A stretch of 39,122 nt of DNA from Candidatus Barnesiella excrementipullorum (lineage in GTDB: Bacteria; Bacteroidota; Bacteroidia; Bacteroidales; Barnesiellaceae_A): the NCBI GenBank assembly GCA_019114665.1, contig DXFB01000160.1, positions 1 through 39,122 of the forward strand. Reading direction: 5' to 3'. Under the pieces are notes generated by a model. That model was not told the DNA's origin and did no database searches. It worked only from the letters and a program-made list of their open reading frames with translations. The stretch's first letter is position 1, and every line of letters begins with the position of its first letter. Position numbers and translations under genes: made by a program. Shown here in pieces: positions 1 to 33,221 of the stretch.

Positions 1-687
1 ATAGCACAAGCCATCGAGGCGTTTATGACTGTCCATGCCGACGACACACCGTCGATGTGCGAGGAGGCTGCCGCCCGAGAGGCCGCCGCCATAGATGCCG
101 ACGAGCTGCTCCGTTACGTCGAGGTGGCCGAGAGAATACTCTACACCCCATCATGCGACAGCCGGCAACGAGCCGTATACCGAGCCCTGATAAGACAATT
201 ATTGCAGAACGGAGGCGACGAGTTGGCCTTATTGCGCTACCGCTACCAGTACGAAATGCTCACCCGCAACAACGAAGGGGAAGTGGCCGACGATTTTGCT
301 TTTACCGACATCAACGGCAACGACCGACAACTATCGCACATTCAAGCCGACTACACGTTACTGATATTCAACGACCCCGACTGCGAGGAGTGCGCCATGC
401 TGCGCCGCTCCATCCTCTCCGACCAGACTCTTTCCGCAGCCATAACCGATGGGCGATTGCAAGTGATAGCCATATTCCCCGACTTGCCCACCCCCGAGTG
501 GGCTGAACAGATGCACCACTACCCGACCTCCTGGATAAAAGGCTACTCAGAAGATGTATCGGACCTATACGACGTACGGCAACTCCCGGCAACATACCTT
601 CTGGACGCCCGCCACACCATCTTGTCGCGCAATGCCGCCGTTACAGAGATGGCCGCTCTCATCACGGCAAACCACCTTCCCCAATAA
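1..687 (+). CDS. thioredoxin-fold (TlpA/DUF5106-like) protein, 5' end outside window
   Basis: Frame 1 is open from base 1 through the listed ATG at 25 to TAA at 685-687. A CxxC pair sits in 'LLIFNDPDCEECAML', followed by 'VIAIFPD' and 'QLPATYLLD'. This layout is typical of periplasmic thiol-disulfide oxidoreductase-like proteins. The family call is from motif layout only. Confidence 0.6.
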   Translation: MAQAIEAFMTVHADDTPSMCEEAAAREAAAIDADELLRYVEVAERILYTPSCDSRQRAVYRALIRQLLQNGGDELALLRYRYQYEMLTRNNEGEVADDFAFTDINGNDRQLSHIQADYTLLIFNDPDCEECAMLRRSILSDQTLSAAITDGRLQVIAIFPDLPTPEWAEQMHHYPTSWIKGYSEDVSDLYDVRQLPATYLLDARHTILSRNAAVTEMAALITANHLPQ

Positions 688-734
688 ACGCTGCCGTTCC
701 AGGCTGAAACAGACCGCCTACGCCATCATAGGAA

Positions 735-770
735 AGGGGAGAAAATGCTTTTACAAGCATTTTCTCCCCT
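735..770. terminator. bidirectional intrinsic terminator between convergent genes
   Basis: Perfect 16-bp inverted repeat AGGGGAGAAAATGCTT / AAGCATTTTCTCCCCT with a 4-nt loop (TTAC). It lies between the stop at 687 (+) and the stop at 811 (-). Confidence 0.75.
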
Positions 771-810
771 AGTCTCCAAACGGATCTGCCACGAATTCAA
801 CACTACATTA

Positions 811-2748
811 TTATTTCTCCATCGTATTGACAACAAAATTGCGTATGATACACTCCGTGCGGCCGGCATTGCCCTTGGCCACGCGCAGACGCAACCGATG
901 CGGCTTGTTTTCGAGCTCGGTCTCAAACATATAGACCCAGGGCAGGTAAAGCCAGCTACTCCACTCGGTGTACGTATCCATTCTCTTATAAGGAGCCCCG
1001 TCGACACTATATTCGAGAGTGGCGGCATGAGGCCCTGCTACACAGAAGATACCCACAGCTGTACCCGTAAAATCGAAAGTGAGGACTTTACCGGGCTTAT
1101 CGGCAACCAGCATGGGCACATCTACAAATCCGGGACGTGTTTGCACCGCACTATCGGGTTGCCACGCCTCTATATAACTCCAACCGTTGCGATACTCGGC
1201 CCGACGTATATCTACGAAGCGGCCGTTGCAGTAGCTATAATCGTCGAGTTTGTCGGCAGGCAGGGCATGCGCCTTCAAGGTATCGCCGGGTGCGCAGCTC
1301 CACATCTCGTCGAAGAGCGAGGCTATCGCCGCGGCATAATACTTATGCCCCATCATGTGGGGATGCGTACCGCCGAACTCTTCCCACGTAAACTCACCGG
1401 CAGCCATGCGGTCGGCTATCTCATGCGCCAAGTCGATAGAAGGGATGGCATAGTGGTTTGCCACCCGTTCGTGATTGAGAATCACATCGGGTATCCGGCC
1501 TTCGGCATAATCTTCTATAAAGGGGTCGTAGATAAAATGCAGCATGATAATATCTACCTCGGGACAAGCCTCACGGGCATGACGCACCTCGCCCTCCATA
1601 CCCCGTACCTGCTCTATGTAGTCGAAGTGGTTGGTATCATCGTTCACCGCCGCCTCGACAAAAAGCAAGTCTATCTCGCCTTTCGACAAAACATCATTCT
1701 CTATACGAAAAGCACCGGGGGTGGTACCGGTAGAGGGGATACCCGCACATACAAAATCAAATTCGGTATAGGGGAAACGCTGCCTCAGTTGCTGCATGAC
1801 AAGGTTGTGCCAGCCCTCCATCTCGGTGATAGAGCCGCCCAAGAAAGCAACCCGTGCCTTGCGGCGATATTGCATCTTATGGAACGAATTACTCAACGAA
1901 CCGCGGTAACGGATATAGTGTTTCTCCTTCTCTCCCGGCTGGTGGCGGAGTATGAAGTCGACAACAGGTTCGGGATTTTCGAGGCTGTGCGGATGATGCC
2001 CCACACCGGGTTTCAGGATAAGCTCAACGGGAGCACCCAGGTCGCTGTAACGGTCACGCCACACCTTCATATTCTCATCATACGGCACCTCGGTATCGCT
2101 ATCGCCACACACCGCCATGACAGGGATATGTGCAGCGGCCATCCGCTGCAAAAGGTCGGGACGGAAGGCGGCCAACCGCTCGCCTTCGGCATCGGTATCG
2201 TCAATCCCCCACAATCGCAGAGCGTCGTTCCACAGATCGGCACGCTGCCGGCCCGGCCAGCTCAACAGATTGCACACCGGGGCATCGACATATATACAGG
2301 CAACAGCCGAAGGATTCCGCGCCGCCCATTGAAGGACAAAGAAACCGCCCCGGCTAAACCCTTCGAGCGTCGTCTTCGGCGAAAGCCCGAGAGAATCTAC
2401 GGCAAACCGATAGAATTTGTCACCGGCAAGAAGGGCCGAGGGAGAGCCGTAACCGTGGGTAAGGTCATAATAGACCACATGAAAACCCTCTTGGAGCAAG
2501 GCCTTGTCTACCGCATCGAAGGCACCGAAAAACGCAGGCCGCCATATCCACGGTGAGCCGTCGGCCACACTGTCGGGTGTGACGACAATCGCCTCGCGAC
2601 CCTCAAAAACGAAATCGTGTCTGCCGGGCATAGATAGGCACGAGGCAACGTCACCTTGTACGGTGACGCTGCCTGCCAAACATCCTACTGAAAACCTAAT
2701 AACGACTGCCAACAGCAGTACGCACTTTAACCGTTTCATCAAACGCAT
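811..2748 (-). CDS. secreted two-domain carbohydrate esterase (alpha/beta-hydrolase + SGNH/GDSL hydrolase + C-terminal beta-rich domain)
   Basis: 645-aa ORF with ATG at 2748 (alternative ATG at 2739, 'MKRLKCVLLLAVV'). The hydrophobic signal peptide has a possible lipobox 'FSVGC'. The N-terminal half has the nucleophile elbow 'GFSRGG' plus 'CGDSD' and 'GVGHHPH'. The middle has SGNH block I 'VAFLGGSITE', block III 'VEAAVNDD' and block V-like 'GGTHPH'. It starts 16 nt downstream of GH97. Confidence 0.75.
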   Translation of the reverse strand: MRLMKRLKCVLLLAVVIRFSVGCLAGSVTVQGDVASCLSMPGRHDFVFEGREAIVVTPDSVADGSPWIWRPAFFGAFDAVDKALLQEGFHVVYYDLTHGYGSPSALLAGDKFYRFAVDSLGLSPKTTLEGFSRGGFFVLQWAARNPSAVACIYVDAPVCNLLSWPGRQRADLWNDALRLWGIDDTDAEGERLAAFRPDLLQRMAAAHIPVMAVCGDSDTEVPYDENMKVWRDRYSDLGAPVELILKPGVGHHPHSLENPEPVVDFILRHQPGEKEKHYIRYRGSLSNSFHKMQYRRKARVAFLGGSITEMEGWHNLVMQQLRQRFPYTEFDFVCAGIPSTGTTPGAFRIENDVLSKGEIDLLFVEAAVNDDTNHFDYIEQVRGMEGEVRHAREACPEVDIIMLHFIYDPFIEDYAEGRIPDVILNHERVANHYAIPSIDLAHEIADRMAAGEFTWEEFGGTHPHMMGHKYYAAAIASLFDEMWSCAPGDTLKAHALPADKLDDYSYCNGRFVDIRRAEYRNGWSYIEAWQPDSAVQTRPGFVDVPMLVADKPGKVLTFDFTGTAVGIFCVAGPHAATLEYSVDGAPYKRMDTYTEWSSWLYLPWVYMFETELENKPHRLRLRVAKGNAGRTECIIRNFVVNTMEK

Positions 2749-2764
2749 TATTACTGCCGAGATA

Positions 2765-4747
2765 TTATTTTATCGGGGTGAATACCATCACGAAACCACC
2801 GCCCTGCGCCATCTCCATAGAAATAGTTTCGCCGGCAGCATATCTCTTCACCTCCCGTTTATAACGCGAGGCATCGGTATCGCTTTTCTTCACATCCTTG
2901 AATATCTCCACTTCATACTCGGTACCTTGCGGCAGGAACGACAGGTCGAATACTACATTGCGACGTGTCCAATCGTTGATACCGCCTACATACCATTTTT
3001 CGCCCGATTGGCGAGCTACAACGGCATATTCGCCTACTTTTGCCAATAGCGGCACCGTCTTGTCCCATACCGTGGGAACAGCCGACAAGAACTTCAATAC
3101 ATCGGGATACTTACGGTAGGCATCGGGCGAATCGGCCAGCATGGCAAACGGCGACTCGATTAACAAATAGAGTGCCAGGTCGTGGCAACGTGTACCCAAT
3201 GTCGAGGGCAAACCGGGGTCGACGGGTTTGAATTTCTCCCGTGTCACATTGCGCATAGAGCCGGGGGTGTAATCGGTTCCGCCACCCAACATGCGGGTGA
3301 AGATAAACTGCAACTGATATACGGGATTGCTGGTAGTATCCCACTTGGCACATTCGGCTCCGCGCATGGCCTCATAGGTGAGGATGTTGGGATAAGCGCG
3401 ATGTAAACCTGTGGGCTTGCTGCATCCGTGGAAATCTACCATCAGATGCCGCTCGGCACAGGCACGTGCCAACTCTTCATACTCGGGCATTACATCGGCA
3501 TCGTCGCGGTCGAAGAAGTCTATTTTCACACCCGCGGCTCCCCATGCAGCGATAGAGTCGAGGTAAACATGCTTGTTCTGGAAGAGCGTAGCGGCAACCG
3601 TCCAGAGCCATACGCCAACGTTCTTCTCCTTACCATAACGGATAACCTCCTTAATATCTACATTCTTGTTGAGGTCGGCATGATTAAAGACATTGCTCCA
3701 TCCGGCATCTACCAGCAAGTATTCGATACCATTCTCGGCGGCAAAGTCGATGTAATATTTATACAACTCGGTAGAGAGATTCGAGTCATCGAAAGGTGCA
3801 TCTTCGAGAATATGGCAGTGCCACCACTCCCAAGTCGCTTTTCCGGGACGAATCCAGTCGGTATCGGCGATTTGCTGCGGTTTGGCCAAGAGATATATAA
3901 TCTCGTTGTTGAGCAACGTACGGTCGTCGTCGGTAACAATCACGATACGCCAAGGGAAGGCATGGTCTCCGGCCGTGCGGGCGATGTACGGCTCACGCTC
4001 CTTCACTACGGTGATGAAATTACCCCAGCTACCCATCTCTATGCGTTTGGGATAGGCAGCCCAGTGCCCTTGCATCTTGCCGTCGGTCTTGCGCAGGTAA
4101 AGGCCGGGATAGTCGTGCAGGTCGGCCTCGGCCACAACAACCTTATAATGTTGCATTTTGTTATCGAACAACATAGGCGTAATGCCATACACACCCTCTT
4201 TGATGTCCGAAACGCCGTCATAGAGTTTGTGGCTCAACTCCCACGAGGTGTAGTTGTTCGTCTCGGGCAGAATCACGCCGGGGTCATCGGCAAAATCAAA
4301 TACGGCCGTCTCATCGGCAATCACCAACGAATCGGCAGGGGCACGCTCGCCGAGGAAACGATATGCCGCACCCTCATTATAAAGGCGGAAACATACGGCA
4401 TAACCGCCATCGAAAGAGAGTGTCAGCTCATTGTAGCAATCGGCAATCTCTTTATTTTTACCGAAGAGCGGATATACTTTCCCGTTATGCTCTTTCTTGT
4501 CGACCGACAAAAGGTTCGATGTACCGTTCCATACCTCGCCGTTTTGCAACGAAAGGGCTATGGGAGATGCATTGACTACGGCATTGCCGTCATAACTGAT
4601 AGCATACGACAGCGACGGTGCGGTAGTAACATTCATCTGCAAACGACCGTCGGGCGATGTCAACTCGTACTCAGCCGCACGGATGCCGGTTAAAGAACCG
4701 GCAACCATGGCAGCTGCGAGTGTTGTTATAAACAACATATTTTTCAT
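2765..4747 (-). CDS. glycoside hydrolase family 97 (alpha-glucosidase/alpha-galactosidase type), signal peptide, no T9SS tail
   Basis: 660-aa ORF. GH97 hallmarks are 'FPWRIVIVTDDDRTLLNNEIIYLLAKP', 'GIEYLLVDAGW', 'GVKIDFFDRDD' and 'DFHGCSKPTGLHRAYPNILTYEAMRGAE'. The N-terminus 'MKNMLFITTLAAAMVAGSLTGIRAAE' looks like an SPI signal. Confidence 0.9.
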   Translation of the reverse strand: MKNMLFITTLAAAMVAGSLTGIRAAEYELTSPDGRLQMNVTTAPSLSYAISYDGNAVVNASPIALSLQNGEVWNGTSNLLSVDKKEHNGKVYPLFGKNKEIADCYNELTLSFDGGYAVCFRLYNEGAAYRFLGERAPADSLVIADETAVFDFADDPGVILPETNNYTSWELSHKLYDGVSDIKEGVYGITPMLFDNKMQHYKVVVAEADLHDYPGLYLRKTDGKMQGHWAAYPKRIEMGSWGNFITVVKEREPYIARTAGDHAFPWRIVIVTDDDRTLLNNEIIYLLAKPQQIADTDWIRPGKATWEWWHCHILEDAPFDDSNLSTELYKYYIDFAAENGIEYLLVDAGWSNVFNHADLNKNVDIKEVIRYGKEKNVGVWLWTVAATLFQNKHVYLDSIAAWGAAGVKIDFFDRDDADVMPEYEELARACAERHLMVDFHGCSKPTGLHRAYPNILTYEAMRGAECAKWDTTSNPVYQLQFIFTRMLGGGTDYTPGSMRNVTREKFKPVDPGLPSTLGTRCHDLALYLLIESPFAMLADSPDAYRKYPDVLKFLSAVPTVWDKTVPLLAKVGEYAVVARQSGEKWYVGGINDWTRRNVVFDLSFLPQGTEYEVEIFKDVKKSDTDASRYKREVKRYAAGETISMEMAQGGGFVMVFTPIK

Positions 4748-4776
4748 AGTGTGTGTAATTAAGAGATATTGGAAAT

Positions 4777-7700
4777 TTATACCATGTTTACTTGTGCTCC
4801 TTGATGGTTGATATCAAGTGCCAACACTTCCGAGAGGAAATGATGCGCCTTGTCCATCTCGCCCAAACCGCGATAGCCCAATCCCATCACATAGTTGCAA
4901 TGGATGCGGTTGCGTTTGTTCAGGTCATCGTCCCAGATAGCCAGGTCGGGCAACGAAACGGCAAAGTAGTCGATGCGGCAGTTATCGAAAAGGTGCTTCT
5001 CGCCATGCTTGATAAGTTTGTTGAAGCGGCCTCTTGCTTTCGCCTCATCGCCCAGCTCGCGCCAGGCAAGACCTTGGAAGAAAATCTTGTCGGGTTGCTG
5101 GTCGTTATAGAAGAATGCCTGTTGGGGCTCGTCGGAGCCTATCGTGGCAATGGTGAAGCAACGATTGGCTTCATCGATGTTACCCAGCCCCTTGTTGGCC
5201 AGACCTTTGTAATACCATATATCGTTCTCTTCGGCATTTTTCAGCTTGCCCTCTCCGAGGTTATGCGGATAGGCATCGGTAGCTTTCAGCAACTGCAAAG
5301 CCTCCTCATAGCGGGCATCGGCAATCGCCTGCTTGGCAAGCTCTACATGGCACAATACATACTGGCCTGTGATTTTGCCTTCACCGCCCTCCCACGGGTG
5401 GAACTTGCGTGCGGCAATCATGCGGCGGGCTTCTTCGTAACGACCCAGCTGATTATAAAGCGTGATGCGTTCGATAGACAAGTCGTCGCGCTCCTCCACT
5501 TGCTGCAAGTGTTTTTCGAGGAAAGCAAGACGATTCTCATAGGAGTAACCGAGCTTTTTGTAGAGCTGGTCAAGCTCCATAAGGATACGTGCATCGGTGG
5601 TGTCGAGCGCATAAGCCTTTTCGAGCAGAATGCGGGCACGCTCCTTGTCGTTGCGCTTATTGTAATAAGCCAGGGCCAGGTTACGCCATACGGTAGGGAA
5701 GGTATCGTCGATGCTGGTCGAAAGCTCCCAGCACTCGACAGCCTCATCGTAGCGGCGTGCAGCATACCAGAAGTTACCCAACGCATAGGCAGCCTTAGAG
5801 CAGTGTCCGGCATTGAGACGGATGGCATCTTGCAGGATGTTTACCTCCTCGATGCGGTTGGGGAAGCAATAGCGGTGGTCGCAGGCATCTCCCTTGCGAT
5901 AATACTCCAATGCCTTTGCTTCATCGCCTTTGAGCGAGTAGAAATAACCTACGGCATAAGCAACGATGGGATAAACGTCGGTAGTGTGCTGCATATAATC
6001 GCACAACAGGGCTATCGCCTCATCATAACAGCCGGCCGAAGCAAAGTCGAGGGCATACTCTATATATCCGTGTGCCCAGCCGCGCATCATGGCGCGCAAC
6101 TCGTCCATGTCAGCAGCATTTCCGCTGATAAGATATTTTTCATACCGGCAACCCATATTGAAACGGTCTATGGCCAATGAGTCGTCGATAAGGCGCAAGG
6201 CTTCGGCTGTACGGCCCAACTTGCGCAAGAGGGTTGCCTTCAACTGACGAGCCTTGTGGTTGTGCCAGTTGCGTATGAGAGAACGCTCTACCCATTCGAG
6301 TGCATTGGCATAGTTGCCGCGCAGGGTGTCTATCTGTGCAATACCATAGTAGGCAGCATCTTGCCAAGCGGCATTCCACGTAGCTTTGAAGAAGGCTTCA
6401 TAAGCCTCGTCATACTTGCGTTGCATGAGGCAGCACCAGCCCAAGTTGTAATAGGGCTCACCATCGTACGGGTTGGGGTTGCGCTCGGTGAGCGTAGCTA
6501 TGGCCGTACGGAAATGAGGCTCGGCAAGTGCAAAGCAGCCCTTGCGCATATACAACAAGCCCATAGCGTTATTGCAACGCACATCGCCGGGCTCGCGGCG
6601 CAATGCCTCGCTATAATAATCCATAGGATTGTATGTGGCATGACGATATTGTTCGAGGTGCAATCCGGTGAGATAGAGTTGCTCGATAGAGGCAATCTCG
6701 GCCGGGTCTTTGGCAGCCTTGGCAGGGTCGGGAATCGGTTTTATCTCGGGCTTGTCGGCACGATATTCCAACAAGAGCTTGCCATCGGGGCGATAAACCC
6801 GGGTGATAAGGTTGTCTGGCGTGATGCCGGGAGCCGAGAAATCGTCGAGATAAGGCGTACGGGGCGAGCATTCGATAGTCTTGTCTATGTATGTCTTGCC
6901 GGAGGCATCGGTTACCACAACGTGCAAATCTTTCTCTACGCCGGTGGTATAAAGGATGATTTTACCGGCACCCTCGGCATCGAGCTCAACATTCAGAATA
7001 GCATCTTTCGAGGCATTCTTCACATATCCCACTTCACTGTAAGGCATGAAGTATTGTACCCACGATTTCTCCTCATAAGGTTGCAACCAGGAGAAGTCGG
7101 GCTGATTATCGGTATATACACCGGTCATAAGCTCGATGTACGGCCCGTCTTCATCGGTAAGGTTACGGTCCCAAGCCTGTCCGAAGTCGCCGCAACCCCA
7201 TGTCCATTGTTTCTTGCCGGGCGATACGTGGTGGTTGGCCACATGCAACAAACCGCCCTTGACATCTTCCTCGTACCCGCCTACAAAGTCGAAGCGTGAC
7301 TTTATCGCCATATACGACGTCGGGACGGGGATATTCTTATACTTCGATATATCTACACCGGCCGAATAGTCCTGTTTATAATATACACCGGTAGCTATGG
7401 GGAACGACGATACGTCGCGCTTGCCATGGTCGAATACGGCATTCACATCCGGTGGGAACACCGAGTGGTAGTGGTCGTTGACTACAACAGCCGGGTTTGC
7501 CCACCACAAGAAGGTTTGCGGGAACGGCGTGCGGTTGTAGATTCTCACTTTTATTTCGATGTAGGCCTTATCGGGATGCAACGTAAAGCCCTGCATACCC
7601 TTGGTACGGAACATTCGCTCTACCTCGCTGCACCACACCGTAACACTGCCATCGGGATTGTTCTCGATAGAATAGTCGGTAGGCAGATAGGTCGACGGGC

Positions 7701-8115
7701 GGTGATGCTGAGGCCAGTTAAACTCAATTCCACCCGAAATCCACGGTCCGGTAAGCCCTACCAAAGCCGGCTTTACGACTTGATTGTAGTAAACGAAATG
7801 GCGTTTTTTCACCTTGTCGTACGCCATGTGGATGCGACCGCCCAACTCGGGCAAAATCATCACCTTGATATATTCGTTTTCGAGGAAAAAGGCGTTGTAG
7901 GCTTTCTCCTTCTTCTCATCATAAATTTTCTCTATAACAGGATAGGGATAAACAGAGCCACAACTGCCCTGATAAACCCGCTTTTCGAGAAAGATAGGAT
8001 TTTTCTCCTCTGCACCTATTTCATAGGTAGGCAGCACGATTTCTTCCTGCCAGGCACGCACCTCGCCGGGAGTATTTACCGTACTCTTGATTAAATATTC
8101 TGTTATCTTTTCCAT
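4777..8115 (-). CDS. DUF5107 domain protein with long C-terminal TPR array, predicted cytoplasmic
   Basis: 1112-aa ORF with no signal peptide or TM segment. The N-terminal ~450 aa carries DUF5107-type signatures: 'ELGGRIHMAYD', 'GGIEFNWPQHHRPST' and 'HVANHHVSPGKKQWTWG'. The remainder consists of repeated TPR-like helical hairpins, for example 'VWRNLALAYYNKRNDKERARILLEKAYAL' and 'IWYYKGLANKGLGNIDEANRCFTIA'. Confidence 0.85.
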   Translation of the reverse strand: MEKITEYLIKSTVNTPGEVRAWQEEIVLPTYEIGAEEKNPIFLEKRVYQGSCGSVYPYPVIEKIYDEKKEKAYNAFFLENEYIKVMILPELGGRIHMAYDKVKKRHFVYYNQVVKPALVGLTGPWISGGIEFNWPQHHRPSTYLPTDYSIENNPDGSVTVWCSEVERMFRTKGMQGFTLHPDKAYIEIKVRIYNRTPFPQTFLWWANPAVVVNDHYHSVFPPDVNAVFDHGKRDVSSFPIATGVYYKQDYSAGVDISKYKNIPVPTSYMAIKSRFDFVGGYEEDVKGGLLHVANHHVSPGKKQWTWGCGDFGQAWDRNLTDEDGPYIELMTGVYTDNQPDFSWLQPYEEKSWVQYFMPYSEVGYVKNASKDAILNVELDAEGAGKIILYTTGVEKDLHVVVTDASGKTYIDKTIECSPRTPYLDDFSAPGITPDNLITRVYRPDGKLLLEYRADKPEIKPIPDPAKAAKDPAEIASIEQLYLTGLHLEQYRHATYNPMDYYSEALRREPGDVRCNNAMGLLYMRKGCFALAEPHFRTAIATLTERNPNPYDGEPYYNLGWCCLMQRKYDEAYEAFFKATWNAAWQDAAYYGIAQIDTLRGNYANALEWVERSLIRNWHNHKARQLKATLLRKLGRTAEALRLIDDSLAIDRFNMGCRYEKYLISGNAADMDELRAMMRGWAHGYIEYALDFASAGCYDEAIALLCDYMQHTTDVYPIVAYAVGYFYSLKGDEAKALEYYRKGDACDHRYCFPNRIEEVNILQDAIRLNAGHCSKAAYALGNFWYAARRYDEAVECWELSTSIDDTFPTVWRNLALAYYNKRNDKERARILLEKAYALDTTDARILMELDQLYKKLGYSYENRLAFLEKHLQQVEERDDLSIERITLYNQLGRYEEARRMIAARKFHPWEGGEGKITGQYVLCHVELAKQAIADARYEEALQLLKATDAYPHNLGEGKLKNAEENDIWYYKGLANKGLGNIDEANRCFTIATIGSDEPQQAFFYNDQQPDKIFFQGLAWRELGDEAKARGRFNKLIKHGEKHLFDNCRIDYFAVSLPDLAIWDDDLNKRNRIHCNYVMGLGYRGLGEMDKAHHFLSEVLALDINHQGAQVNMV

Positions 8116-8133
8116 AGTGAATGATATGTGTGA

Positions 8134-9519
8134 TTATTTGATTAATTCCTTTTCCAATTCTTCGAGACTCTTTCCCTTCGTCTCGGGGAGCGTGCGCACG
8201 ATGAAGAGACCTCCTACCAGGCAAATAATGCCATAGAGCCAGAATGTCCACGCTGCGCCCAATCCGCTATTGAGTATCGGGAACGTATAGGTAAGTACAA
8301 AACAAGCTGCCCACAAAGCAAAGGTGCATACCGACATGGCTATACCGCGGATGCGGTTGGGGAATATCTCAGAAATAATTACCCACATGACCGTAGCAAG
8401 CGTCATGGCATAACATGCGATGGCAAGTACTACAATCACCAGCAGCAGCACACCGGTAAAGTGCATGTAATAGAACATACCCATCAGCGCATATATCGCC
8501 GCCAGGCCGAAAGCCCCTATCAGAGCAAGTTTCTTCCTTCCCCAGCGGTCGACGACAAACATGGCAATCACCGTGAAGACTACATTGGTAATGCCCGTCA
8601 CTACAATATTCATCAAGACATCCGAGATGCCGTACCCGGCCGACATGAAAATCTCTTGCGCATAGTTGAATATGACATTGATACCGCACCACTGCTGCAA
8701 AACGGCCATTACCACACCTATCAGCAACACCTTGCGCATAGAGGGGTGGAAAAGCTGACGGAAACCGCCTTGTCCCGTTTCCGAGGCAAGCGCAACCTTG
8801 ATGGCGTCCATCTCCTTAGCAGCTACCTCGGGGCCGGCAATGCGGGTAAAAATCTGCAAAGCCTTGTCGGTCTGTCCCACCGAGGCCAACCACCGGGGAC
8901 TCTCGGGCAAGAAGAATGCCAAAACGAAAAACAGCACCGACGGCACTATCATAGCCCAGAACATCCATCTCCAACCCATCTGTCCGTTCCACGAATAGAG
9001 TATCATCTCGGCCGTGGCACCTTCGGGCACCGGCTCGGCGATAAGCCAATTGACAATCTGAGCCGACAAGATACCCAGCACTACCGTAAGCTGGTTGATG
9101 GCAACAAACCTGCCGCGCATATGGGTAGGTGCTATCTCGGCGATATACATGGGCGACAGACTCGATGCGACACCGATAGCGAAACCGCCTATAAGACGAA
9201 AGATTGTAAACATAAGGAAGGTACTTGCAAATCCCGTACCCCATGCCGTACAAATAAACATGCCGGCCGCCAGAATAAGAATAGGCTTACGGCCAAACTT
9301 GTCACTGAAACGTCCGGCGGTAAGCGCTCCCACAAGACAACCTATAAGCGCGCTGCTCATAGCCCAGCCTTGCATGGAGGGATTGTCGGCAATACCGAAA
9401 AATTGTTCGTAAAACGGTTTCGCTCCTCCAATTACGACCCAGTCATAACCAAAGAGCAAACCACCCATAGCAGAAATAATAGCTATGCCAAAAAGGAATG
9501 CATTGGAATGTGTCTTCAT
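8134..9519 (-). CDS. MFS sugar porter family transporter (sugar/H+ symporter, XylE/GalP-like)
   Basis: 461-aa ORF. Sugar-porter signatures are 'GGLLFGYDWVVIGGA', 'GRFSDKFGRK', 'PESPRWL', 'VDRWGRKK' and 'PETKGKSLEELE'. The hydrophobicity pattern fits 12 TM segments. Confidence 0.9.
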   Translation of the reverse strand: MKTHSNAFLFGIAIISAMGGLLFGYDWVVIGGAKPFYEQFFGIADNPSMQGWAMSSALIGCLVGALTAGRFSDKFGRKPILILAAGMFICTAWGTGFASTFLMFTIFRLIGGFAIGVASSLSPMYIAEIAPTHMRGRFVAINQLTVVLGILSAQIVNWLIAEPVPEGATAEMILYSWNGQMGWRWMFWAMIVPSVLFFVLAFFLPESPRWLASVGQTDKALQIFTRIAGPEVAAKEMDAIKVALASETGQGGFRQLFHPSMRKVLLIGVVMAVLQQWCGINVIFNYAQEIFMSAGYGISDVLMNIVVTGITNVVFTVIAMFVVDRWGRKKLALIGAFGLAAIYALMGMFYYMHFTGVLLLVIVVLAIACYAMTLATVMWVIISEIFPNRIRGIAMSVCTFALWAACFVLTYTFPILNSGLGAAWTFWLYGIICLVGGLFIVRTLPETKGKSLEELEKELIK

Positions 9520-9548
9520 AGCTTGGTATTTTTAATCATTTTATGAAG

Positions 9549-9587
9549 CAAAGGAAAGCATTTGCAGCGGCATGGAAAATAGAAAAA
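9549..9587 (-). promoter_or_regulatory. putative activator-dependent promoter of the MFS/DUF5107/GH97/esterase operon
   Basis: Minus-strand reading gives TTTTTCTATTTT (9587-9576), then 19 nt, then TTCCTTTG (9556-9549), a one-off match to the Bacteroides -7 consensus TAnnTTTG. The box ends 29 nt before the ATG at 9519. The same architecture recurs at 33171-33209. Confidence 0.45.
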
Positions 9588-9599
9588 ATTGTTATCGGG

Positions 9600-9617
9600 A
9601 TGGACAATCTTACTTTT
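9600..9617. promoter_or_regulatory. 18-nt conserved box ATGGACAATCTTACTTTT (copy 1), candidate regulator binding site
   Basis: Identical 18/18 to 33222-33239 in the same orientation. It lies in the divergent AraC/MFS control region and keeps the same 12-nt spacing to the T-rich block as copy 2. Confidence 0.55.
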
Positions 9618-9645
9618 TTACCTTGTTTTTTGCAAAATTCGTGTT

Positions 9646-9653
9646 TACCTTTG
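9646..9653 (+). promoter_or_regulatory. -7 box (TACCTTTG) of a putative AraC-gene promoter
   Basis: Exact match to the Bacteroides TAnnTTTG consensus. It ends 26 nt upstream of the AraC ATG at 9680, and a TTTG lies upstream at 9629-9632. Confidence 0.5.
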
Positions 9654-9679
9654 TAAAAACCTCACCAACTTCTCCTGCC

Positions 9680-10567
9680 ATGCCCAAAATACGCGAAGGT
9701 TTCAAAGGTCAGCGAACGATTATAATACCCTCGTTCATAATAGAAAAAATAAAGCAAAATCCGTTGGGAAAGATGCTCTACATTACCGACATCGGGTTCT
9801 ACCCTACGGCATCGTACCACTACCGGGAACGCACCGCCGATGAAGCCACAGAAAATGTACTCATTTACTGTGTAAGGGGGAAAGGATGGTACTCTCTGGA
9901 CAAGAAGCGCTATCATGTGACCCAAAACCAGTTCTTCATTCTTCCCGAGCACGAAGCCCACGCCTACGGGAGCCTCGAAGACGACCCGTGGAGCATCTAT
10001 TGGCTGCACTTCAAAGGCGACATGGCCGCCTTCTTCCGCAAAGGATTCGACGTACCCACACACGTATCCTCCCCGAACAACCAGCCTTTGGAGACACAGC
10101 TGCATCTCTTTGAGGAGATATACAACACGCTCGACAACGGCTTTGGCAACAACAACATCATGTATGCCACTACAAGCCTGTTCCACTTCCTGGGGCTCAT
10201 GAAATATGTGGGAGAATATATCGAAAACAAAAACGAGAGAAGGCATGTAGATGCAACCGACCTTGCCATCGCTTTCATGCAAGAGAACATCAACCGCAAG
10301 CTCTCGCTCGGTGAAATAGCCGAGGAGGTAAATCTGTCTGTCTCCTACTTCTCCAACCTGTTTCTGAAAAAGACAGGCTTCTCGCCCTTACAGTACCTGA
10401 ACATGCTGCGCATCCGGAAAGCCTGCCATTATCTCGACTTCACCAATATGAAAATCAACCAGATAAGCCCGTTGGTAGGAATCGACGACACCTTCTATTT
10501 TTCCCGTCTGTTTACCAAAATCATGGGTATATCGCCCTCGGAGTACCGGGCCCACAAGAAAGGATAG
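9680..10567 (+). CDS. AraC family transcriptional regulator (N-terminal cupin-type ligand domain + C-terminal dual HTH)
   Basis: Start chosen at 'MPKIREGFKGQRTIIIP' (ATG 9680) rather than the listed 9572, because the extra 36 aa translate promoter DNA. Cupin-like segment: 'NVLIYCVRGKGWYSL...FFILPEHEAHAYG'. AraC HTH segments: 'LSLGEIAEEVNLSVSYFSNLFLKKTGFSPLQYLNMLRIRKACHYL' and 'FYFSRLFTKIMGISPSEY'. Confidence 0.85.
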   Translation: MPKIREGFKGQRTIIIPSFIIEKIKQNPLGKMLYITDIGFYPTASYHYRERTADEATENVLIYCVRGKGWYSLDKKRYHVTQNQFFILPEHEAHAYGSLEDDPWSIYWLHFKGDMAAFFRKGFDVPTHVSSPNNQPLETQLHLFEEIYNTLDNGFGNNNIMYATTSLFHFLGLMKYVGEYIENKNERRHVDATDLAIAFMQENINRKLSLGEIAEEVNLSVSYFSNLFLKKTGFSPLQYLNMLRIRKACHYLDFTNMKINQISPLVGIDDTFYFSRLFTKIMGISPSEYRAHKKG

Positions 10568-10570
10568 GAA

Positions 10571-13500
10571 TCAATACACCTCCCATTCATATATGCGGGC
10601 TATATCGCCGCCGTCACGCACCGGGCCGGTAATATGCAGCCTCACATAGCGGGCCCCGACCTGTGTAGCGAGGTTGCGGTCGGTCACATTCTTGGTATTA
10701 CCTGTTATTTTGTCTACCGTTTGCCAGGCATCCTGGGGTGTATGGCGCACTTGCAATTCATAATCTTTTGTTATGAAGGCCGGCGTCTCCTTTCCGGCGT
10801 GCATGACCCGCCACCCCTTCACCGGCAACACCTGTCCCAAATCGACCTCGATGTAATTGGGCTTCCCGGTATGAAAATCAGCCCACTTGGTGCGCTCATC
10901 GCCATCTATGGCAAAACGCGCCGCCTCATTTGGCGACGTCGCCCCCGAACATGATACAATCTCCTTACCCAACAAGAGGTTACGGGTCTCGAAGTTTTTA
11001 TACACGACATCGGCCTCTCTCATTGCCGTACGGAAAAGAGGGGTGGCCGGTTGCAGGGAAGCCGTTTCTTCGGTAAGCGTAGCTGCAAAAAGGACGATGC
11101 GCGAATTGCAGGGCAATACCAGCTCACGAGCCTTGGAGGGCAGGTCTATGACAAACCTAAATATATAGGTGTACTCGTATGCGCAATCTCTGTTCCCATT
11201 GAGGTCATGCCGATGCGTACCCACAAAAGCCGGCACCGGCTGCTTCAAATAGGCCTCTGTCTCGCCTTCGTGCCCCCACTGCCCTATAAATCCGCTATAA
11301 TAGGGGACCTCTATATTATATGGTTTTCCATCGACATAAAACGTAGCGGCATAATCGTCGAGCGTAGAAGCTGCCAGCAAATAGAGCCGGTTGTAAGCCC
11401 CGTCTTGCGGCAAGCGGATAGTGTCGCCGAGACACTTCACGCCATTGGCGGCATTCTCGTCGCCCATCACAAAGATAACACCGCCACTATAAAGCGTATC
11501 GGGGAAAAGCTCTGCCGCAAAAGAGTGCCCGGCTCCGTCGAAATCGGCCGTATTACGGAACTCGTTATACGAAACACAACGCAGGTTATAGGGGAGCTGC
11601 AACGGACGCGATGCGATGGGTTGCAACGGGTTGCGACAGGGCTGCGGAACAATCCGATAGGTTCGCACACCGTATGCCGGAAGTGCCACTGCAAATGCAT
11701 TATCCGTGAAAGGGAGCGTATCTTGCACTATCTCGGTTCCATCGCACATAAACACGGCCTGCAACGGAGCCACAAAAGAGAGCCGGGCTTGCGTTGCACG
11801 CCCCTGCTTCTCGCATAAGCGTACAATGTAACCGTTGCCGTCCTCGGCCTTTTTCAACGCCATCACTTCTACGCCGGGGTTATCTATCGAGAGCCACGAA
11901 CAGGCCCGCCCCCACTCTCCGCCGTGGCGCGAAACCGCAAACGCTTTCAGCCCGTTGTCATAAGCCTCGGCACGGCGCGGTATTCCGGCATCCGTTTCAT
12001 TGCCCTTATGGGCTATCATTGCATACCCAAACGTATGATACCCCATATCCTGCCGGCTCTGATAAAAGAAAGCACTCTCGGCAGCCGGCGTGTGCATGAG
12101 AGTAAGGCGCATGGTATGGTCATCGGGCTTGTCCCAGCCATATTTGGCATCGCTCAGTATAGAGATGCCGTAACCGTCAGACGTATCGGCCAACGATACC
12201 CAGCGATGGGCATAAGTCTCATACGCCGACGGCCGATTGGAAGGCCGCCCTACCGAACCGATTCCGATATCGTAACGTGCCGTATCGTTTGCCACGGCAA
12301 GGGGAAATGCCATCTTCAACAAGGCTCGCCCGGTATGCCAGTCCAACTCGTTACGCACCTCTACACGGTCACTGCCGGAGACCAGACTGATATACTGCAA
12401 CCAACGGGTGTCGCCATACTTGCGCTCCACACAGAGGGTGGCACGCAAAGCCCCGCACTCCACCAGCGACACACGACAAACATCGAACCGCCCGTCGGGA
12501 ACGCTCTGTATCACCTGCCACTTGATTTCCCACGCCGGCCATTGGAACGAATCGTTCCGGGTAAACAGCTGCGGGGCGATGCTCTCTCCGGGAGCTATCC
12601 ACTCCCGATTGTAACGCTTGTCGTACCACGACACCATATTGCCGTCGCTGTCGAGGAGGATTCGATAAATGCTGTTTTCGAGGGTGCTGTCGGTAGCCGC
12701 CACATCGCTCTTTTCAAGCGACCGGCCGGCCGGCCGCACATCGTAAACGGCCACTCCCATAGGAGAGACAGCGGCCTGCAAGAGAAGTTGCACACTGTCG
12801 TTTGCATACCCCAGCACCTGCGACGGCACTTTGCGACCCTTCTCGTCATATACCGCATAATACTTGCGGCCTTTCGGGGAAGGCACGCTTACCTCTACCA
12901 CATCGGTAACGGCATGCGACGACGGGTTGTATATAAGCAACGGCATACCCTTCACCCGCGTATCCAGCCTACGGCTCAGCGTGGCAAGCGAGGTTTCAAG
13001 AACGTCCCCAAACTGCCGCAGGGACAACAGCTCGTCGTTCCACGAATAGGTATAGGCGCGAGGGATAGACGTTCCTGTCAAATCATCGTGAAATTGATGC
13101 CATACAAACCTTTTCCAAGCCGCATCGAGGGTCGCAGCCGGGTAACTGCCGGGCAGCAACCAGTCGGCGACAACAGCCGCACGCTCGGCTGCCGCTGCCA
13201 AGAGCTCATTCTCGCGGTTATATAACTTCATGGCCGCCTGCGAGGTATAGCAGGCATTCCCATGCACATCCATCAACATCTCGCCTTTGTATATGGGCAA
13301 TTCGGGATGCGCCTCCAAAGGCCAGAAATCGCGATACATATCATCGCTTGCCGCCGATACGACATGCACCCTGCCCTCTTTTCCTACGGCATTCTCTACC
13401 GCCTCGACAGAACCTATGGTAGGCGAACCGCCTATATCTCCCGTTCCATAATAGTGATAGACGGCCCGTACGGGCGACGACATCGCCTTGTCATAAAGTT

Positions 13501-17152: not shown

Positions 17153-18532
17153 TCATCGTTTTACAACCTCGGTCGTTCCATCGGCATAAGCGATACGAAC
17201 GATATAACGGGCTCCCGAAACGGGCAAAGCGACAACTGCATCGCAACCACTCACCGCAACCTGCGAAAGCAAGTTACCGCCGAAGTCATATACTGCCACT
17301 TGTGCCATCTCCTTTTGCGTCGTCAACAAGAGCGATTGCGAGCCGCGCACAACCTTGGCAACAGATACCTTTGTCAAACCTACGCCCGACACATCGATAC
17401 CTACGATATGGAATGCGCCCCAATCCATGTCGGCCTCATACAGCGGCATTTTGGTGGCATCGACAGCCAAGGTCACGTTCTCTACGGCAACACCGTCAAA
17501 AGCCTCGTACCCTACCAACGGCAACGTCTGGGCAGGACAGAATATAGAATCGAGAGCCGTACAGCCCGAGAAGGCCCAGTCGCCCACAAACGTGAGGTTG
17601 TACGACAACGATACCTCCTGCAACGAGGAGCAACCGAAGAATGCCGAGGTGCGTACCTCCTGCACACTTTGCGGCAACCTCACCTGCTGCAACGATGTCG
17701 TCCCATAAAACATGCTGCCCTCGACAATATCGAGCGACCACAGGTGTGTCCAGTCGGCCTTATCGACCGCCGTGTACATAAAGGCACCCTCGCCTATGCT
17801 GCCAACCGATTGCGGCAACTCTACGGCCGAAAGGTTTGAACAAGAGGCGAAAGCATAATCGCCTATGGTAGAGAGGCGCGTTGCGGCAGAAAAGTCGAGC
17901 GCACCCAATTGTGCATTACCGCGGAATACATCGCTACCCAAAGTTTCCAGCGAAGAACCGGCGGCCACATCGAAACTCATCATGACAACATCATAAGCAA
18001 AAGCCGCATCTCCTATCTCTACAACCGAAGCCGGCAAAACGAATTGACGCAGACGATTGCAACGCGAGAATGCTCCATTGCCTATGTATTGCAGCTCCTG
18101 CAACGACTCGACATTGGTTTCACGCAAGACATTGCACAAATAGAAGGCATTGTCTCCTATACTGCGTGTCGAAAGAGGAGCCGAGAAAGAGGTCATCCTA
18201 TTCATACCGAACGACTCTTGCGGCCGGGAAAAGGCATTGGCCGGGATAGCATCGGCTGCATAGGCCGTGCCCTCTACTTCGCAAGCCGCAATGGTAGCTT
18301 CCGTCATATCGATAGAAGAGATACGCGTAAGGCTATCGCGGATAAAGAAGAAGTCGCGAGCATCCACCGTACCTGTGATTTTCATATCGCTCAACGTAGT
18401 ATACTCCTCCTGCGGTACAAGCTCCGAGAGCGTACCGGGTTGCGTCACCATAAATTCTGTCACATCTTGCGCCGTTGCAGCAAGAGAAGCAAAGAGCAAC
18501 AAAGCTCCCATGAGGCATCTGTTATTTTTCAT
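17153..18532 (-). CDS. BspA-type leucine-rich repeat protein with T9SS C-terminal sorting domain
   Basis: 459-aa ORF with signal peptide 'LLLFASLAATAQD'. Repeated units match the BspA-like LRR pattern: 'IGDNAFYLCNVL', 'IGNGAFSRCNRLRQFVLPASV', 'IGDAAFAY', 'IGDYAFASCSNLSAVELPQSV', 'IGEGAFMY' and 'VGDWAFSGCTALDSI'. The C-terminus 'VAVYDFGGNLLSQV...ARYIVRIAYADGTTEVVKR' is CTD-like. Confidence 0.8.
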   Translation of the reverse strand: MKNNRCLMGALLLFASLAATAQDVTEFMVTQPGTLSELVPQEEYTTLSDMKITGTVDARDFFFIRDSLTRISSIDMTEATIAACEVEGTAYAADAIPANAFSRPQESFGMNRMTSFSAPLSTRSIGDNAFYLCNVLRETNVESLQELQYIGNGAFSRCNRLRQFVLPASVVEIGDAAFAYDVVMMSFDVAAGSSLETLGSDVFRGNAQLGALDFSAATRLSTIGDYAFASCSNLSAVELPQSVGSIGEGAFMYTAVDKADWTHLWSLDIVEGSMFYGTTSLQQVRLPQSVQEVRTSAFFGCSSLQEVSLSYNLTFVGDWAFSGCTALDSIFCPAQTLPLVGYEAFDGVAVENVTLAVDATKMPLYEADMDWGAFHIVGIDVSGVGLTKVSVAKVVRGSQSLLLTTQKEMAQVAVYDFGGNLLSQVAVSGCDAVVALPVSGARYIVRIAYADGTTEVVKR

Positions 18533-18535
18533 ATA

Positions 18536-19588
18536 TTACAGTATATCAAATTTATAATTAGTCGTATAGGAATATGTTTCACCCCGGCGCAAGCATGTCG
18601 AAGGGAAGGCGGGGTGCGAAGGTGCATCGGGATAGAACTGTGTTTCGAGGCACACTCCCGTGGCAGGCAACAGAGGCTCACCCTGTTTTCCCTCGGTACC
18701 GGGAAGAAAACCTGCCGAGTAGAACAAAACCGCGGGAAGCGACGTATCGACAACCATGCGCCGCCCGCTGGCCGGATGCGACAGGAGTGCAGCTCTGCGC
18801 ATAACCCCGGGCTCTCCCAAGAGATAGCAATGATTGTATCCGCGATTCCACTCCAATTGCCGGTGCGTCATGTGCAAGCTGTCGCCTATGGCATGGGCAT
18901 GAGTAAAATCGAACGGCGTACCCTCGACAGAGCAAAGCCGACCGGTAGGGATAAACGAAGCATCGGTATCGAGCATCGTATCGGAACATATCTGCAACAG
19001 ATGGTCGTCGACAGGTCGCGCGTTGCCCGAAAGATTAAAATATGCGTGGTTGGTCATATTGATGCACGTGTCACGGTCTGTCACAGCCCGGTGGCATATC
19101 GAGAGGTTGTGACTGTCATCGAAACAATAATCGACCTCGGCATGTACTTCACCGGGGAAACCACCCTCCAAATGGGGAGATACCAGTGTAAAACGTATGC
19201 CCTGCGGCAACCATTGCCAGCCCCACACCCGGCGGTTCCATCCGTGAAACCCGCCGTGGTTGGTATTGACCCCGTCATTCGCGTCAAGCCTATACTCCAC
19301 ACCACCTATCACCACACGGGCACGGGCTATGCGGTTGGCATACCGCCCTACCGTAGCTCCTATATAACAGGTATCGTCTATGTAGCCCTGCGCCGAAGGG
19401 TATCCCAGCAGCACATCGGCCAACCGTCCCCGGGCATCGGGCATGCAAGCCGACACCCACGTTGCACCGAGGTTCGTCAGTTCTACATAGGCGCCGTCGG
19501 CGGCCGTCAGGCGAAACAAAAAGAGCGGCTCGCCGGCATATTCGCCCCATTGTTTATAACTCAACTCCATATACGCTCCTATAAGCAT
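18536..19588 (-). CDS. galM: aldose 1-epimerase (galactose mutarotase)
   Basis: 350-aa ORF with a possible true start at 'MELSYKQ' (19570). Mutarotase signatures are 'GATVGRYANRIA', 'NTNHGGFHGWNRRVW', 'MTNHAYFNL' and 'GVCLETQFYPDAP'. There is no signal peptide. The stop is 3 nt from the LRR gene start. Confidence 0.85.
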   Translation of the reverse strand: MLIGAYMELSYKQWGEYAGEPLFLFRLTAADGAYVELTNLGATWVSACMPDARGRLADVLLGYPSAQGYIDDTCYIGATVGRYANRIARARVVIGGVEYRLDANDGVNTNHGGFHGWNRRVWGWQWLPQGIRFTLVSPHLEGGFPGEVHAEVDYCFDDSHNLSICHRAVTDRDTCINMTNHAYFNLSGNARPVDDHLLQICSDTMLDTDASFIPTGRLCSVEGTPFDFTHAHAIGDSLHMTHRQLEWNRGYNHCYLLGEPGVMRRAALLSHPASGRRMVVDTSLPAVLFYSAGFLPGTEGKQGEPLLPATGVCLETQFYPDAPSHPAFPSTCLRRGETYSYTTNYKFDIL

Positions 19589-21915: not shown

Positions 21916-21967
21916 AGCTAAACAGATAAAGATATAGAAAAGAGGATATCTTCCAAGATGAAATATG

Positions 21968-22001
21968 AAATCCACGCGGCGCGGACACGCCGCGTGGATT
22001 T
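21968..22001 (-). terminator. GC-rich intrinsic terminator/attenuator after the FG-GAP gene
   Basis: AAATCCACGCGGCG / CGCCGCGTGGATTT form a perfect 14-bp stem with a 6-nt loop. A T-rich run follows on the minus strand (TTTCATATTTCATCTT). Confidence 0.7.
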
Positions 22002-23937: not shown

Positions 23938-23978
23938 AATGAATAGAATTAAAATGTTAAACAAATTATCTAAGAAAT

Positions 23979-24011
23979 CCATGCGGGTCAATCACGGAGA
24001 GACCCGCATGG
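23979..24011 (-). other. intergenic stem-loop downstream of the SusD-like gene
   Basis: CCATGCGGGTC / GACCCGCATGG form an 11-bp stem with an 11-nt loop, beginning 20 nt after the SusD-like stop. ATTTCTTAGATAATTTGTTT follows on the minus strand. It may be a partial terminator or an RNA-stability element. Confidence 0.5.
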
Positions 24012-25599: not shown

Positions 25600-25619
25600 A
25601 ATGGTATAGTATTTAAGGA

Positions 25620-33209: not shown

Positions 33210-33221
33210 CCAACTATTCGC

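Follow-up and report, generated by a model that had tools for sequence, protein, structure and literature searches.

In a 39,122-nt stretch of Candidatus Barnesiella excrementipullorum DNA (contig DXFB01000160.1, here called the window), the gene of an AraC-family regulator lies divergent from that of a sugar-porter-family H+ symporter of the major facilitator superfamily (MFS), and the porter gene is followed on its own strand by the gene of a 1112-residue protein made up of DUF5107 and tetratricopeptide repeats (TPR). These three genes form a unit that is conserved across the Bacteroidota. Judged from its conserved linkage, its galactose-releasing neighbours and its predicted fold, the DUF5107/TPR protein is probably an undescribed sugar-processing enzyme, and the initial annotation, made from the letters alone, had already picked it as the best candidate in the window for such a function, a choice that held. 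The reading preferred here, to which we give a probability of roughly 0.4, is a glycosidase acting on a small imported galactoside, under a regulator that would also switch on the adjoining polysaccharide utilization locus (PUL). A broader proposal, put forward just as tentatively, is that these proteins would constitute a new cofactor-independent carbohydrate-active family with a mutarotase-type sandwich capped by TPR, either a new glycoside hydrolase (GH) family or an anomerase/isomerase, with a cytoplasmic porter-coupled clade and an exported PUL clade, and that AraC and its TCCAT motif would serve as a phylum-wide switch of galactoside PULs.

A genome scan with the DUF5107/TPR protein gave at least 598 relatives. 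The best 80 loci, which were retained, span Bacteroidia, Flavobacteriia, Sphingobacteriia, Chitinophagia and Cytophagia and encode proteins 55-86% identical to it over the full 1,100 residues. When all window proteins were searched against these loci by tblastn, the porter was found in 72 and AraC in 66, while GalM was present in 16, GH36 in 12-13, GH97 in 11, GH95 in 8 and the esterase in 1. In 49 loci the porter gene lies directly upstream of DUF5107 on the same strand (median gap 36 nt). A reciprocal search in metagenomes via the porter yielded 80 loci (77-97% identity), and DUF5107 follows directly downstream of the porter in nearly all of those that reach far enough, with GH95-porter-DUF5107-GH97 and GH97/porter-DUF5107-GalM as recurrent gut layouts. 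In the 16 genome loci, as in many metagenome loci from the gut, GalM adjoins the porter/DUF5107 pair. Among the carriers are Bacteroides salyersiae, B. nordii, Paraprevotella clara/xylaniphila, Coprobacter fastidiosus and Jilunia. Identity across the phylum reaches 55-71% in DUF5107, 41-68% in the porter and 36-47% in AraC. When 138 other flanking open reading frames (ORFs) were surveyed in a Pfam census, no family appeared in more than five of them, and neither this census (PfkB in 2 of the 138) nor ORF clustering produced a cytoplasmic kinase, isomerase or phosphorylase partner. The conserved unit is AraC, the porter and DUF5107, and the GH97 and esterase that complete the operon in the window are lineage-specific additions because they occur in so few of the loci. 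Of the linkage expected by the initial annotation, that of DUF5107 with the genes of AraC and a sugar-porter MFS protein was borne out across the Bacteroidota; GH97 and the esterase did not prove to be conserved partners, and a coupled de-O-acylation of the same ligand, which had been suggested from the esterase, finds no comparative support in these loci.

Some irregularities of the pair were also seen. Two protein clusters at 90% identity mix DUF5107 proteins of about 1113 residues with sugar-porter proteins of about 461-464 residues, which suggests fused or read-through porter-DUF5107 gene calls in some assemblies, and an overlap of about 30 nt between the two genes occurs in several loci. 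In four distant lineages (loci L007, L028, L043 and L078) a small exported SGNH/GDSL esterase and a GH30 (Glyco_hydr_30_2) lie within or beside the porter-DUF5107 string, and in L007 and L078 this insertion stands directly upstream of DUF5107. Such insertions echo the esterase of the window operon and hint at acylated galactoside substrates.

The DUF5107/TPR protein matches Pfam DUF5107 (PF17128) over residues 54-358 with 189.6 bits against a cutoff of 24.4, and many TPR models follow. No stretch of 19 residues exceeds 0.97 on the Kyte-Doolittle scale, so that both a signal peptide and a transmembrane segment are absent and the cytoplasmic location first proposed for it stands. Among 1.84 billion representatives, a protein search gave 4,052 clusters at E<=1e-3 and 983 at E<=1e-30, most of them about 1,100 residues long. 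An AlphaFold2 model built on a 70-sequence alignment (predicted local distance difference test, pLDDT, 94.9; predicted template modelling score, pTM, 0.92) places beta-sandwich domains at residues 20-455 (approximately 6751-8056 of the window) and a TPR solenoid at 477-1112 (approximately 4780-6687). The best Foldseek match of the N-terminal domain is PDB 5CD6 (E 2e-25, root-mean-square deviation 3.5 A over 349 columns). It is followed by stand-alone aldose-1-epimerases (E 1e-12 to 1e-8, target-normalised TM-scores 0.60-0.68, probability 1.0), namely 3MWX, 4BZE (B. subtilis GalM), 3K25, 2HTB (YeaD), 2CIQ (yeast hexose-6-phosphate mutarotase) and Slr1438, and at lower ranks by sandwich domains of GH38, GH2, GH36 and polysaccharide lyase (PL) enzymes, YidC and MdoD. 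The fold search suggested at the outset for this domain has in this way returned an aldose-1-epimerase-like beta-supersandwich. The relationship to mutarotases is one of predicted fold; by sequence the protein is a clear member of DUF5107, not an aldose-1-epimerase and not a member of a known GH family, as only DUF5107 and TPR models were returned by Pfam and NCBIfam. A single relative of 1399 residues, on one 8-kb Logan contig, carries a C-terminal Exo_endo_phos domain, which may reflect either a genuine fusion or an error of gene calling.

Across 70 diverse members, D100, E131, H138, N194, N207, H230, Y326 and E328 are invariant and H137, K302, D321, D336 and D340 nearly so, with invariant tryptophans (W125, W205, W306, W315) alongside E131, E328, D100 and D336. 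Along the chain, H138, H230, D321 and E328 follow the order of H96, H170, D243 and E304 of GalM. Invariant residues of the TPR part are W580, R811, which stands at the consensus Tyr of a TPR helix, and E909 within a conserved non-TPR loop, FHPWEGGEG.

Signal peptides are carried by 17 of the 70 representatives, the more distant ones, which have the identical set of invariant residues and the same length and architecture. Going by these N-termini, the DUF5107/TPR family is not purely cytoplasmic. Because the signal-peptide clade keeps the same invariant residues, the putative pocket would work without partners or cofactors confined to the cytoplasm, which argues for a cofactor-independent activity able to work on either side of the membrane. 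The contexts of this exported clade of about 1,100 residues comprise GH30_2, GH16 with sulfatases, GH2, beta-helix proteins and AP_endonuc_2/GFO_IDH_MocA/ThuA. The last of these was seen in three Planctomycetes-like contigs, where signal-peptide DUF5107/TPR genes lie near AP_endonuc_2 (xylose-isomerase-like), GFO_IDH_MocA and ThuA, a gene set that we take to be typical of 3-keto-glycoside pathways.

A further exported subfamily is defined by DUF5107 together with PF22256 (BDI_1685-like_C) and is represented by 5CD6, the BDI_1685 protein of Parabacteroides distasonis, a structural-genomics entry described as 'TPR-domain containing protein' with no function. Like the window protein, 5CD6 has the DUF5107 beta-sandwich followed by a helical domain, and it retains E131, H138, N194, N207, H230, K302, Y326, E328 and D336, though not H137. 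It differs in being only 22% identical, half as long (580 residues) and exported, in its C-terminal domain, and in its surroundings, since 5CD6-type genes stand beside GH123, GH97 or GH2 in PULs and not beside a porter and AraC. Their contexts (SusC-SusD-GH123-DUF5107, SGNH-GH97-GH3-GH97-GH123-DUF5107 and beta-helix-GH2-SGNH-DUF5107) are again galacto-configured, GH123 being a beta-N-acetylgalactosaminidase family. The 5CD6-type gene is directly downstream of GH123 in two unrelated Bacteroidota loci (L170, 9001-10822; L171, 6461-9816), and one of the two is a minimal SusC-SusD-GH123-DUF5107 locus with an extracytoplasmic function (ECF) sigma factor.

The AraC protein combines a double C-terminal helix-turn-helix (HTH_AraC, HTH_18) with an N-terminal cupin (AraC_binding), as had been read from the sequence, and scores 97.6 bits against the NCBIfam equivalog of E. 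coli AraC, below the cutoff of 208. A motif with a TCCAT core, (A/T)AA(G/A)AT(T/A)(G/A)TCCAT, was derived from 49 intergenic regions between AraC and the first regulated gene. There, 57 TCCAT sites face the regulated operon and 4 the reverse direction, against 7.9 +/- 2.9 in shuffles, and paired copies 21 bp apart occur in 14 loci; by computation, this is the pattern of a tandem direct-repeat operator near the promoter, as used by AraC/XylS regulators. When the matrix was applied to 378 intergenic regions outside the training set, none of them adjoining an AraC gene, 19 matches of at least 17 bits were obtained against 1.1 +/- 1.0 expected, upstream of SusC, GH2_20, GH95, GH36 and GH30. Where DUF5107 and the porter are apart, operator-like sites also stand immediately upstream of DUF5107.

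In the window, the two best matches are both intergenic and both correctly oriented, one facing the porter operon and the other in a 193-nt gap upstream of GH36 (start 33121). They have in common an exact 13-mer, TAAGATTGTCCAT (18 nt with flank), with 2 matches against 0.03 expected in shuffles, and each is followed, about 48 nt downstream, by a CTTTGC-type -7-like element. Because of this shared site, the GH36-led PUL operon(s) would be co-regulated with the porter operon, and the computational evidence points to AraC controlling both, presumably by binding to the motif. The earlier suggestion that the module belongs to the PUL as one of its arms finds its strongest support in this evidence, with the 13-mer at both promoters. 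Gene callers start AraC at 9572 (longest ORF, 331 residues), whereas a start at 9680 gives 295 residues. The latter is preferred because the median length in the family is 298 residues, because the start follows a TAnnTTTG-type element, which we take to be the -7 promoter element of Bacteroides, and because the ATG at 9572 falls inside an operator-like half-site. The 160-nt control region originally described is consequently the better reading. The ATG that would open the 9572-9679 extension is the reverse complement of the CCAT core of this second half-site.

With these data, two non-catalytic explanations can be weighed. The first is co-inheritance only, the DUF5107/TPR protein having a role unrelated to sugar such as that of a general chaperone or scaffold. 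The heterogeneous contexts of the exported clade would agree with this, yet the linkage is kept across classes of Bacteroidota despite extensive rearrangement elsewhere, it is confirmed by the reciprocal porter search, DUF5107 has operator-like sites of its own when apart from the porter, and its beta-sandwich carries invariant polar residues, all of which makes this explanation very improbable. The second is a sugar-binding signalling adaptor, in which the sandwich would bind the sugar and the TPR part would bind AraC or the porter and so tune transcription or transport. Parallels exist in the TPR co-activators of AraC-family regulators in type III secretion and in yeast Gal3/Gal80. The unit of regulator, transporter and DUF5107 is self-contained, with no further conserved catabolic gene, entire PULs seem to be under the linked AraC, the TPR region is matched by canonical repeats of the protein-binding kind, and non-catalytic mutarotase-like sandwiches (the YidC P1 domain, NDH subunits) are among the fold matches. 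The signal-peptide clade, however, shares the invariant residues and the architecture, and its proteins, which have no access to an AraC in the cytoplasm, are often encoded in loci without an AraC gene or porter. Moreover, DUF5107/TPR is more conserved than AraC or the porter, which would be unusual for an adaptor, AraC has a cupin ligand-binding domain of its own, and the LcrH/SycD model (TIGR02552) reaches 27 against a cutoff of 104.8 bits, this class consisting of small stand-alone TPR proteins and not of 1112 residues with a sugar-fold domain. An adaptor is therefore unlikely. An enzyme is favoured because the unit is self-contained without a kinase or isomerase, because its conservation exceeds that of the transporter, and because the exported PUL paralogues have an identical putative pocket.

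The substrate class is suggested by the porter and by the variable neighbours. The porter scores 372.9 bits with Sugar_tr and 338.7 bits with TIGR00879 (cutoff 237.8), and its roughly 12 hydrophobic segments and the motifs PESPRWL and PETKGKSLEELE agree with the 12-TM-type sugar/H+ symporter first annotated. Aligned to XylE (4GBY), it keeps F24, Q168, Q288, Q289, N294, N325, W392 and W416. The D-xylose transporter XylE itself (NF007484) was considered and rejected, as the porter reaches 388 bits against a cutoff of 608 and has L for Q415 and N for Y298. Among DUF5107-linked porters, Q415L occurs in 70 of 70 and Y298N in 64 of 70, and the pattern holds although these porters fall into two subtypes of about 42% mutual identity. 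Because L415 and N298 are common to both divergent subtypes, the porters would have a common, non-xylose substrate class.

By ORF clustering and Pfam, the variable neighbours are mostly galactoside enzymes. A GH2 clade near PDB 8U01 is found in 28 loci, and 8U01 belongs to subfamily GH2_20, for which beta-galactosidase activity has been reported (PMC12243196). GH35 occurs in 7 loci and GH30 in 5, and SGNH esterases and sulfatases are also among the neighbours. The co-localised GH36, GH97, GH2_20, GH35, GH30 and GH95 all have signal-like N-termini; GalM does not. These neighbours suggest a galacto-configured sugar as the ligand. Cytoplasmic glycosidases as a sign of oligosaccharide import were rejected, all co-localised glycosidases being exported. 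In stramenopiles, DUF5107 has been placed among 28 orthogroups indicative of phagotrophy, alongside digestive enzymes and with its function given as unknown, in line with the remark of the initial annotation that the domain has no assigned activity. A literature search for PF17128, IPR033396, 5CD6 and BDI_1685 returned chance string matches to '5CD6' only, and no description of the module, the motif or an activity was found in the literature searched, which included neighbouring BDI locus tags and gut homologue accessions.

From these observations we infer the substrate class, the catalysis, the reaction type and the binding of AraC to the motif as follows. Exported exo-glycosidases of the adjoining PUL (GH36, GH97, GH2, GH95 and others) would trim galactose-containing glycans in the periplasm, and the porter would import the resulting small galacto-configured sugar. 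AraC would sense this sugar or its product in the cytoplasm and activate the porter and GH36-led PUL operons via tandem TCCAT sites. The DUF5107/TPR protein would be a cofactor-independent carbohydrate-active enzyme that acts on the anomeric centre of the imported sugar by acid/base chemistry, with a proposed pocket of E131, H137/H138, N194, N207, H230, K302, Y326, E328 and D336 and with W580, R811 and E909 contributed by the TPR cap. The first choice for its reaction is cleavage of a small galactoside left intact by the periplasmic enzymes, the released galactose passing to GalM and housekeeping Leloir enzymes. The signal-less GalM encoded in the window also means that DUF5107 is not, as first thought, the only cytoplasmic partner there. 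The frequent adjacency of GalM, the minimal PUL of GH123 and DUF5107, the conserved residues on the TPR side and a logic like that of melAB and lacZY speak for a glycosidase.

Several results weigh against this reading. The exported clade of about 1,100 residues has contexts too heterogeneous to name a substrate. A Pfam scan of the DUF5107/TPR protein at E up to 10 gave no GH or aldose-epimerase family, and hhalign of the N-terminal domain with a GalM alignment (window and 16 loci) gave a probability of 0.8%. The helical part matches canonical protein-binding TPR proteins very well, which fits a scaffold. A single pocket lined by the invariant residues, with those of the TPR part reaching into it, is a proposal. 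Finally, the porter retains every monosaccharide-contacting residue of XylE, and exo-acting periplasmic partners would release monosaccharides; both favour monosaccharide import and, with it, an anomerase or isomerase.

The latter would take the form of a giant mutarotase-type enzyme that converts the anomer or ring form of an imported monosaccharide, and possibly epimerises or isomerises it, for a kinase or for the AraC sensor, the TPR part serving for oligomerisation or docking to the porter. Pairs of transporter and mutarotase are well known, as rbsD with rbsACB, fucU with fucP and galM with galP. Beyond the porter residues and the monosaccharide-releasing partners, the closest structures are catalytic aldose-1-epimerases and not the non-catalytic sandwich domains of GH and PL enzymes, H138, H230 and E328 are ordered as the His/His/Glu of GalM, and the need for no cofactor fits the exported clade; SGGIEFNWPQHH may also resemble GG-x-P-x-x-(F/W)-P of YeaD-type epimerases. 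A canonical GalM nevertheless stands alongside in 16 of the 80 loci, in many gut loci and in the window, where a second galactose mutarotase would be redundant. Such an enzyme would also leave 640 conserved TPR residues with the invariant, non-consensus R811, E909 and W580 unexplained, would be an odd second enzyme for the minimal SusC-SusD-GH123-DUF5107 locus, and has no profile similarity to Aldose_epim. We regard it as somewhat unlikely. The evidence is divided, and cleavage of a small imported galactoside is ranked slightly above a mutarotase-type reaction.

Comparison with characterised systems shows where the proposed enzyme would stand. Aldose-1-epimerases (3MWX/4BZE, 2HTB, 2CIQ, Lactococcus lactis GalM 1L7K) resemble DUF5107 in the beta-supersandwich, in the His/His/Glu order and in their links to sugar transporters and galactose metabolism. 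DUF5107 differs from them in being only about 10% identical, with no profile match, and in having a larger domain with an extra beta domain at residues 365-455 and a 640-residue TPR solenoid, and it co-occurs with a bona fide GalM. In the periplasmic GH186 beta-1,2-glucanases OpgD and OpgG, a galactose-mutarotase-like beta-sandwich is itself catalytic, which provides a precedent, although the fold match to DUF5107 is weak (E. coli MdoD 9E08, TM-score 0.24-0.26), with no sequence similarity and a different second domain. In melR-melAB and lacI-lacZYA of E. coli, a regulator (of the AraC family in mel) is located beside a symporter and one cytoplasmic enzyme that feeds central metabolism. The window unit likewise has a regulator next to a symporter and one cytoplasmic protein, but an uncharacterised family occupies the enzyme slot, the symporter is of the sugar-porter family and not of GPH/LacY type, and the regulator, unlike those of mel and lac, appears to control Sus-type outer-membrane machinery too. 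Sus-type loci are usually explained by known carbohydrate-active enzyme families and by regulators that sense the periplasm. A cytoplasmic AraC-type regulator, CgrA, together with an MFS permease controls a galactan PUL in the carrageenan locus of Zobellia galactanivorans; to our knowledge this system lacks a DUF5107 protein and has dedicated catabolic genes for its monosaccharide.

DUF5107/TPR proteins are present in at least about 600 species-level genomes and in more than 900 clusters at 50% identity, and they are abundant in human-gut species. This protein of 1,100 residues exceeds its transporter in conservation and has a relative of known crystal structure. Once its activity is assigned, a gap that recurs in annotated PULs would be closed, and a CAZy family or a new class of enzyme might be gained; the regulatory model, if true, would place a PUL under a cytoplasmic AraC sensor that a dedicated porter supplies. 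The question lends itself to direct tests, as the candidate substrates are few (galactose-type sugars, small galactosides) and the candidate catalytic residues and operator can be named.

Table 1. Features of the window, with positions in the 39,122-nt stretch.
Feature	Position	Strand	Basis	Remarks
Perfect hairpin	735-770		Sequence	16-bp stem, 4-nt loop; between convergent genes
Exported tandem esterase, 645 residues	811-2748	-	Pfam	Last operon gene
Exported GH97	2765-4747	-	Pfam	Accessory operon member
DUF5107/TPR protein, 1112 residues	4777-8115	-	Pfam	Second operon gene
Porter (sugar-porter-family MFS H+ symporter)	8134-9519	-	Pfam, NCBIfam	First operon gene
Weaker operator-like half-site CTATTTTCCATGCCG	9568-9582	-	Motif	28 nt downstream of the first site; contains the 9572 ATG on the other strand
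Operator-like site TAAGATTGTCCATCCCGAT	9594-9612	-	Position weight matrix, 17.5	Toward porter operon; best in window; candidate AraC site
TACCTTTG	9646-9653	+	Matches TAnnTTTG	27 nt upstream of AraC ATG 9680; presumed promoter element
AraC-family regulator	9680-10567	+	Pfam	Divergent from porter operon
GH36-to-GH38 gene string	10571-33121	-	ORFs, Pfam, NCBIfam	Candidate co-regulated PUL operon(s)
BspA-type leucine-rich-repeat (LRR) protein, exported	17153-18532	-		Inside PUL
GalM (galactose-1-epimerase)	18536-19588	-	Pfam, NCBIfam galM	Signal-less, cytoplasmic
Exported 775-residue protein	19648-21975	-	Weak Melibiase_C match only	E ~3e-4 to Thermotoga GH36 alpha-galactosidase
FG-GAP repeat protein	22084-23991	-		Inside PUL
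SusD	24031-25644		Pfam	
SusC	25620-28691		Pfam	
Second operator-like site TAAGATTGTCCATGCGAAT	33216-33234	-	Motif	Upstream of GH36
Hybrid two-component regulator	35915-39106	-	Reg_prop, Y_Y_Y, HisKA, HATPase_c, Response_reg, HTH_AraC	Cut by window end

The operon itself was recovered in the ORF table as first annotated, with its four minus-strand ORFs (Table 1) separated by 18, 29 and 16 nt from porter to esterase, and the domain identities given to their products (sugar porter, DUF5107/TPR, GH97, tandem esterase) were matched by Pfam. The absence of a hairpin from the junctions also stands, the gaps being too short and no terminator-like match falling in any of them. Over positions 1-10700, terminator-like matches numbered 12 against 10.4 expected in shuffles and were not above chance; scans for sigma-70 promoters and T-run terminators stayed at shuffle level, the expected outcome for Bacteroidota. 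The hairpin beyond the esterase, described earlier and read directly from the sequence as a perfect stem, folds with an energy of -31.3 kcal/mol (z = -7.3 relative to shuffled sequences) and lacks a T-run. It may terminate transcription in both directions, for the porter operon and for a thioredoxin-like gene at 25-687. The N-termini of GH97 and of the esterase (MRLMKRLKCVLLLAVVIRFSVGC in the latter) are hydrophobic and signal-like, in keeping with the signal peptides assigned to them. The GH97 contains all three domains (GH97_N, Glyco_hydro_97, GH97_C), scores 619 bits with NCBIfam NF053844, under the cutoff of 800, and is closest to retaining alpha-galactosidases. The esterase joins an Abhydrolase_1/Peptidase_S9 region (residues 80-255) to a Lipase_GDSL_2 region of the GDSL/SGNH type (residues 302-469).

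The remainder of the window is taken up by a Sus-type locus, encoded on the strand of the porter operon, with the order GH95, GH36, a second GH97, SusC, SusD, FG-GAP, the 775-residue Melibiase_C protein, GalM, LRR, GH2 and GH38. An adjacent SusC/SusD pair flanked by GH97, GH36, GH95, GH2 and GH38 is the arrangement of a Sus-like PUL. The AraC gene sits convergently against GH38, and at the far end the hybrid two-component system (HTCS) regulator lies upstream of GH95, so that the PUL may be under two layers of control, HTCS and AraC. Relatives of the 775-residue protein are directly upstream of DUF5107 in 7 loci, one example from Chitinophagaceae having the order SusC-SusD-775-residue-type protein-DUF5107-GalM-porter, and judging from its similarity this protein may represent an uncharacterised alpha-galactosidase-like family. 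Relatives of the LRR and FG-GAP proteins are rare, each turning up in no more than one or two of the 80 loci.

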